From Escherichia coli (GTDB lineage: Bacteria > Pseudomonadota > Gammaproteobacteria > Enterobacterales > Enterobacteriaceae), in assembly GCF_003334335.1 (NCBI RefSeq), contig NZ_QOWQ01000078.1: DNA of 4,565 nt. One strand, 5' to 3'. Positions within the stretch are counted from its first letter, which is position 1; each line of letters opens with the position of its first letter. Positions 4,420 to 4,444 of the stretch are shown here, in pieces. The notes under the pieces are model-generated. The model had not been told where the DNA came from. It worked only from the letters and a program-made list of their open reading frames with translations, and searched no databases. The translations under genes were made by a program, and so were the position numbers.

Positions 4420-4444
4420 AAAAAGGGCGCCGAAGCGCCCTTTT
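4420..4444 (-). terminator. tufA (str operon) rho-independent terminator: stem GGGCGC/GCGCCC with a UUCG tetraloop (− strand), followed by U5; symmetric A5/T4 flanks make it potentially bidirectional
   Basis: Inverted repeat 4425-4430 / 4435-4440, loop CGAA on + (UUCG on −); A-run 4420-4424 and T-run 4441-4444. Lies 25 nt downstream of the tufA stop. Confidence 0.85.

Follow-up and report, generated by a model that had tools for sequence, protein, structure and literature searches.

In Escherichia coli, the intrinsic terminators that follow tufB, rpoC, clpB and rplQ consist of a G/C stem of 5-8 bp, a tetraloop, a 3' U5-U7 tract and a 5' A4-A7 run, and are situated 20-40 nt after the stop codon of a gene whose downstream neighbor has the same orientation. 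Bidirectional intrinsic terminators, of which lpd/yacH (A6-7/U6-7) is an example, are near-palindromic hairpins with homopolymer runs on both sides, and the overlapping bidirectional terminators defined by SEnd-seq lie between convergent genes and do not look like intrinsic terminators (according to the part of bioRxiv 10.1101/2022.10.23.513370 that summarises Ju et al. 2019). Upstream A-tracts are commonly described as a mark of bidirectional terminators (PMC12207403; bioRxiv 10.64898/2026.07.06.736697; PMC9257418), and published work connects them with a gain in forward efficiency as well as with bidirectionality (PMC12207403; bioRxiv 10.64898/2026.07.06.736697), with one or two A's being sufficient for the forward effect (2026 preprint, bioRxiv 10.64898/2026.07.06.736697). 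We compared these systems with the hairpin found downstream of tufA in a 4,565-nt stretch of E. coli DNA (the window), and found that it shares the architecture and the position of the tufB, rpoC, clpB and rplQ terminators, with no essential difference from the canonical intrinsic terminators that end highly expressed genes in E. coli. It is thus an already known kind of element.

The window carries gspO (177-854, + strand), bfr (883-1359, - strand), bfd (1431-1625, - strand), chiA (1794-4178, - strand) and, cut by the window edge, the last 96 nt of the tufA (EF-Tu) coding sequence (4470-4565, - strand), whose translation ends in GVVAKVLG* and whose stop codon is the TAA at 4472-4470. Matching E. 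coli records annotate 4470-4565 as tuf or tufA, the last gene of the rpsL-rpsG-fusA-tufA row. Both tufA and chiA lie on the - strand and are co-directional, as are tufA and bfd in strains lacking chiA. To the right of a deletion within the window chiA, the MG1655 (NC_000913.3) coordinate equals the window position plus 3465675, and the hairpin at 4420-4444 corresponds to 3470095-3470119. This chiA deletion (window 4037-4038) is an in-frame loss of 309 nt (103 residues, K-12 residues 48-150) that removes one repeated N-terminal carbohydrate-binding module and leaves a ChiA of 794 aa, compared with 897 aa in K-12, that is otherwise 100% identical. Only ~6 of the 5426 complete genomes contain its exact junction (>=99% identity), and there the product is annotated as 'carbohydrate-binding protein'; the deletion probably arose by recombination between YxNAWWV repeats, or possibly reflects an assembly collapse.

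On the + strand, the hairpin reads AAAAA (4420-4424), GGGCGC (4425-4430), CGAA (4431-4434), GCGCCC (4435-4440) and TTTT (4441-4444), with C at 4445. Read in the tufA sense direction (- strand, 4444->4420), this becomes AAAA-GGGCGC-UUCG-GCGCCC-UUUUU and then GC, which comprises an A-tract (4441-4444), a 5' arm supported by sequence and fold (4435-4440), a UUCG tetraloop closed by a C-G pair and read from the sequence (4431-4434), a 3' arm supported by sequence, fold and covariation (4425-4430), and a U-tract directly 3' of the stem (4420-4424). A 3'-UTR spacer of 25 nt (4445-4469) separates the stop codon from the start of the terminator, and its position 4445 (G on the - strand, C on the + strand) is polymorphic. 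The core, with six G-C pairs and a 4-nt loop, folds with -12.1 kcal/mol in the sense and -11.2 kcal/mol in the antisense direction (sense 0.9 more stable), and can be extended to 10 bp by four A-U pairs between the A-tract and the U-tract. For the full 25-mer, the predicted folding energy is -16.5 kcal/mol (z = -4.1) in the - strand and -15.8 kcal/mol (z = -4.2) in the + strand; neither value was equalled by any of 200 shuffles. In addition, a consensus scan identified the hairpin as a 12-pair terminator-like site on the - strand, and an Rfam scan of the whole window returned zero matches at E<=1, as expected for a plain terminator. An extended outer helix seen in a 67-nt fold was dismissed as unimportant, because it needs chiA-side sequence that lies past the mapped 3' end and is absent from chiA-less strains. 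A preliminary description of this DNA had given the coordinates and the sequence of the hairpin exactly, and its UUCG tetraloop on the - strand can be read directly as C(UUCG)G, an exact cUUCGg (UNCG-class) tetraloop. The same description had called the A/T flanks symmetric, which holds for the presence of runs on both sides; their full symmetry does not hold, given U5 in the sense and U4 followed by C in the antisense direction.

Published maps place the 3' end of the tufA mRNA (...UUUUUGC-3') at 4417-4418 on the - strand. Term-seq (Adams et al., bioRxiv 10.1101/2020.07.18.207399, Supplementary file 1) contains a strong 3' end at 3470093(-), equivalent to window 4418, which two of the three lists contain, with scores of 89838 and 75075, has a flanking sequence that closes with ...GCGCCCUUUUUGC and is classed as 'orphan'. 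In the SMRT-Cappable-seq data (PMC6131387, sheet M9_TTS), two tufA transcripts, both with listed starts that precede the tufA start codon and fall within the coding sequence of fusA, end at 3470092(-), equivalent to window 4417, with 135 and 76 reads ending versus 0 and 1 passing in M9. This read-through is far below that of most rows of the table, in which the site is labelled 'novelTTS' with no nearest known TTS. The 'novelTTS' and 'orphan' labels represent a cataloguing gap, with no biological difference behind them. Overall, the mapped ends sit 7-8 nt past the stem with a read-through of ~0-1%, and the features expected of an intrinsic terminator, namely a G/C hairpin, an adjoining U-tract, in vivo 3' ends and little read-through, are all present at tufA. 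We found no entry for the tufA terminator region in the apparent Rho-dependence comparison of Adams et al. (bioRxiv 10.1101/2020.07.18.207399), and the TERMITe supplements contain no tufA entry. Sequence, fold and mapped - strand ends bear out the identification of the hairpin as the tufA terminator. A lack of - strand 3' ends had been named beforehand as the observation that would count against termination in both directions, and such ends do map here in both datasets; this test was mis-specified, because the - strand is the sense strand of tufA and a two-way claim needs 3' ends on the + strand.

We further compared the tufA hairpin with 20 strict terminator-like hairpins in 300 kb of MG1655. 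In this small sample, whose gene context was inferred from ORFs, an A-run of >=4 directly upstream of the stem was found in 7 of 13 hairpins classed as co-directional and in 4 of 7 classed as convergent, with at least one of the 'convergent' cases mislabelled (the hairpin after bamD is co-directional per annotation). The same architecture was present at the terminators of tufB, rpoC, clpB, rplQ, serS and accC, all of them co-directional by the classification of the scan. Among these, rpoC and clpB have a UUCG loop together with an A4-5 run and a U5-7 tract; the runs at tufB are A4 and U5, with the tufB-type terminator reading AAAA GGGCAUCA UUU GAUGCCC UUUUU. Unrelated hairpins that replace the element after tuf in Yokenella and Enterobacter sichuanensis also bear A- and U-runs. 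A UUCG loop with A/T flanks is the standard build of a strong E. coli terminator, and therefore provides no evidence of locus-specific antisense blocking. The tufA stem-loop resembles the SEnd-seq overlapping bidirectional terminators in its location at a gene boundary, but differs from that class as a textbook intrinsic terminator between co-directional genes. Elsewhere in the window, gspO (ends 854, + strand) and bfr (ends 883, - strand) converge on a gap of 28 nt that contains a hairpin, CGGGAGGG-AGAA-CCCUCCCG (875-856, - strand), which lacks a U-tract on both strands. A very strong 3' end of bfr was mapped to MG1655 3466218 (window 852), which falls on the stop codon of gspO (Adams et al., bioRxiv 10.1101/2020.07.18.207399). 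This gspO/bfr hairpin looks more like the SEnd-seq non-canonical terminators of convergent genes than the tufA element does.

A word-11 blastn search recovered exactly one copy of the tufA terminator in each of the 5426 complete E. coli genomes, 564 of which had been missed by megablast with a 55-nt query owing to a central SNP. The window allele was present in 4384 genomes and the exact A5-type allele in 835 (~15%). In the latter, a SNP at position 4445 (C->T on the + strand, G->A in the sense strand) lengthens the A-tract from A4 to A5 and produces 5/5 flanks; this SNP mostly comes together with another, located ~6 nt farther 5' on the sense strand (~window 4451), and occurs on chiA+ and chiA-less backgrounds alike. 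The stem, UUCG loop and U5 were identical across the six aligned E. coli alleles. Beyond E. coli, a pattern scan for the tuf C-terminus in one genome per species yielded 14 tufA-type terminators from Enterobacterales, all of which have the form A4-7 / 6-bp stem / loop / U5-7. The stem occurs as GGGCGC, GGACGC (3' arm GCGUCC) or GAGAGC (3' arm GCUCUC), each with a matching 3' arm, and three pairs of the stem show compensatory changes, 97% of the cells being paired. In 11 of 14 orthologues the loop is UUCG with its C-G closing pair preserved; the others have UCCG (a UNCG-type loop, in one Morganella orthologue), CUCG and a UUA triloop, once each. The A4 next to the stem is invariant in all 14 whatever gene lies downstream (range A4-A7, with the E. 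coli run the shortest in the family), and the U-tract ranges from U5 to U7 with an invariant U5. Selection appears to act on the - strand RNA, because UUCG persists in the sense direction despite turnover of the stem sequence.

Homology to the window stops at ~4418 in 2283 of the 5426 genomes, in which bfd directly follows tufA, and the chiA-side flank is present in 3143. With and without chiA, the sequence is the same up to and including ...CCCUUUUUGC and differs from the next base onward, placing the chiA insertion junction between 4418 and 4417, at the mapped tufA 3' end and 2 nt past the U-tract. Raoultella and Kosakonia share the chiA-less junction, with ...UUUUUGC on one side and UGCCCG... 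on the other, followed by bfd-bfr, and the chiA-less layout (tufA-terminator-bfd-bfr) is ancestral because it is common to these two genera, chiA having been inserted just beyond the end of the tufA transcript. The terminator is independent of chiA: chiA-less E. coli, Raoultella and Kosakonia have the same A-tract, hairpin and U-tract, which predate chiA. We rejected the view that the A/T symmetry arose in response to chiA, given the identical element in the ancestral chiA-less layout. The region upstream of bfd also differs with the presence or absence of chiA. It contains, in chiA-less E. coli, Raoultella and Kosakonia, a conserved Fur box-like motif, ATTGTAATCATAAC(C/T)ATTCTCATTTAC, whose counterpart in the chiA+ window (~1650-1690) has diverged to AATTGAAATAAGAACTATTTTCATTTA. 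Two tandem terminator-like hairpins lie at 1728-1787 (- strand), just past the chiA stop codon and upstream of the bfd promoter region, the first being UGGCGAUAC-CUUCCA-GUAUCGCCG then CAUUUUUU and the second AAUGGGCUAC-UUU-UGGUAGCCCAUU then AUUUUUAU.

Taken together, we consider it highly probable (roughly 85%) that 4444-4418 (- strand) acts as a canonical Rho-independent terminator at the end of tufA transcripts, with any competence against antisense transcription being a by-product and no adaptation to chiA. Once U5 has been transcribed, the G/C stem with its very stable cUUCGg cap would fold in the RNA exit channel, and the weak rU:dA hybrid would release the transcript 7-8 nt beyond the stem (...UUUUUGC). 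An AAAA run 5' of the stem is a general feature of strong terminators; it can pair with the proximal U's and reportedly raises forward efficiency, and we infer this role for the tufA A-tract. In some genera the A-run (up to A7) exceeds the U-run that it could pair with, which counts against the A-tract being mainly a forward enhancer, as does the sufficiency of one or two A's for the forward effect (bioRxiv 10.64898/2026.07.06.736697), and the A4-A7 runs might therefore reflect extra selection, for example for two-way insulation. The same hairpin would afterwards cap the 3' end of the abundant tufA mRNA.

This last step could also be given the leading role, with the cUUCGg hairpin being selected mainly as a 3' cap against 3'-to-5' exonucleases and termination being secondary. 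Such an emphasis is compatible with the terminator reading and is a tentative possibility. It draws on the retention of UUCG and its C-G closing pair where the stem has been replaced (Morganella, Enterobacter), which argues for selection on the structure of the sense-strand RNA, and on the whole hairpin being retained in the mature tufA 3' end. However, the near-zero read-through indicates that termination itself is highly effective, and the benefit of upstream A's was unaffected by deletions of degradosome components (bioRxiv 10.64898/2026.07.06.736697).

The preliminary description had further proposed that the hairpin terminates transcripts from either direction and thereby blocks antisense transcription from the chiA regulatory region into tufA. 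In its fullest version, the + strand hairpin (CGAA loop, U4) would form a true two-way terminator that keeps antisense RNA from the AT-rich, H-NS-bound chiA spacer out of tufA; we regard this as unlikely. Since the element is nearly palindromic, its antisense version could probably stop some + strand polymerases, and the two 25-mer folds are nearly equal. The + strand RNA has a CGAA loop and U4 then CAAUUC (U5 in ~15% of E. coli genomes). In relative terms only, a d'Aubenton-Carafa-style score was +30.5 forward versus +11.4 in reverse, which is still positive, and the 8-nt RNA:DNA hybrid past the stem was as weak in reverse (-4.9 kcal/mol; -3.3 for the A5 allele) as forward (-6.0), against -10.2 +/- 2.3 for random 8-mers; terminator scores of the orthologues were computed on fixed stem cores. 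Moreover, A-tracts are widely taken as a mark of bidirectional terminators, and at tufA an A4-A7 run is kept in every orthologue. The reverse version is nevertheless weaker in three ways: its U-run is U4 instead of U5, its distal tail is rich in A, and its CGAA loop, unlike cUUCGg, has no special stability. These sequence features suggest that the + strand version could probably stop some polymerases, more weakly than the forward one.

The transcription data and the gene context are less favorable to termination in both directions. No + strand 3' end was listed near the hairpin or the adjacent tufA (34701xx) in the complete Term-seq file (three conditions), and none was found near the hairpin in the SMRT-Cappable-seq supplementary files as far as consulted, which is weak evidence because silenced or rare antisense RNA would fall below the thresholds of both methods. 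Compared with bidirectional intrinsic terminators, the tufA site thus shares the near-palindromic hairpin and the flanking runs, but has a reverse U-run of only 4, no convergent transcription unit, no mapped antisense transcript and no listed 3' ends on both strands. The tufA hairpin is also absent from the Brophy & Voigt supplements, which use forward and reverse terminator strengths taken from Chen et al. 2013. Rho and collisions with the intense sense transcription of tufA also restrict antisense RNA that is not translated. Reverse termination is plausible from the sequence scores, with the listed 3' ends giving it no backing.

The proposed source of antisense transcription was the chiA regulatory region. 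A promoter-like site lies at 4221-4256 on the - strand (-35 TTGAAG at 4256-4251, -10 AATAAT at 4233-4228, TSS ~4221), and chiA, which is repressed by H-NS, has a published TSS at 3467918 in an older MG1655 numbering. After conversion of the numbering, this TSS falls at window ~4221, in agreement with the - strand promoter-like site 4256->4228. The chiA promoter is separate from the terminator and directed away from tufA. The tufA-chiA spacer has 19-23% GC and contains three + strand promoter-like matches at 4311-4374, which would suit an antisense source; however, the window as a whole holds 8 promoter-like matches versus 6.0 +/- 2.5 in shuffles, which is not above expectation. Our literature search on chiA, H-NS and tufA antisense transcription found nothing relevant. 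Furthermore, the architecture is older than chiA, is unchanged where bfd follows tufA, and is generic among E. coli terminators, with tufB, rpoC and clpB sharing it in places without a convergent partner; E. coli has the shortest A-run of the family, contrary to the expectation from a need specific to chiA. Because the architecture is older than chiA and generic, and with chiA co-directional and its TSS firing away from tufA, we find no support for the proposed shielding of tufA against the chiA regulatory region.

A more specific scheme, which we judge improbable, would have relief from H-NS lead to + strand starts at ~4340-4385 that stop at ~4446-4450, protecting tufA, with the A4/A5 SNP tuning the reverse efficiency. 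Finally, a functionless chance palindrome, which might be entertained because terminator patterns are not rare (8 sites in the window versus 5.0 +/- 2.4 in shuffles by a simple terminator scan), is ruled out by the mapped 3' ends, the ~0-1% read-through, the covariation, the fold (z = -4.1) and the presence of the element in 5426/5426 genomes.

Beyond correct annotation, the significance of the tufA terminator is small. The 3' boundary of the tufA transcript in the window is fixed at 4418/4417, the terminator ranks among the tightest in the SMRT-Cappable-seq table (PMC6131387), and its small size and strength could make it useful as a natural terminator part.
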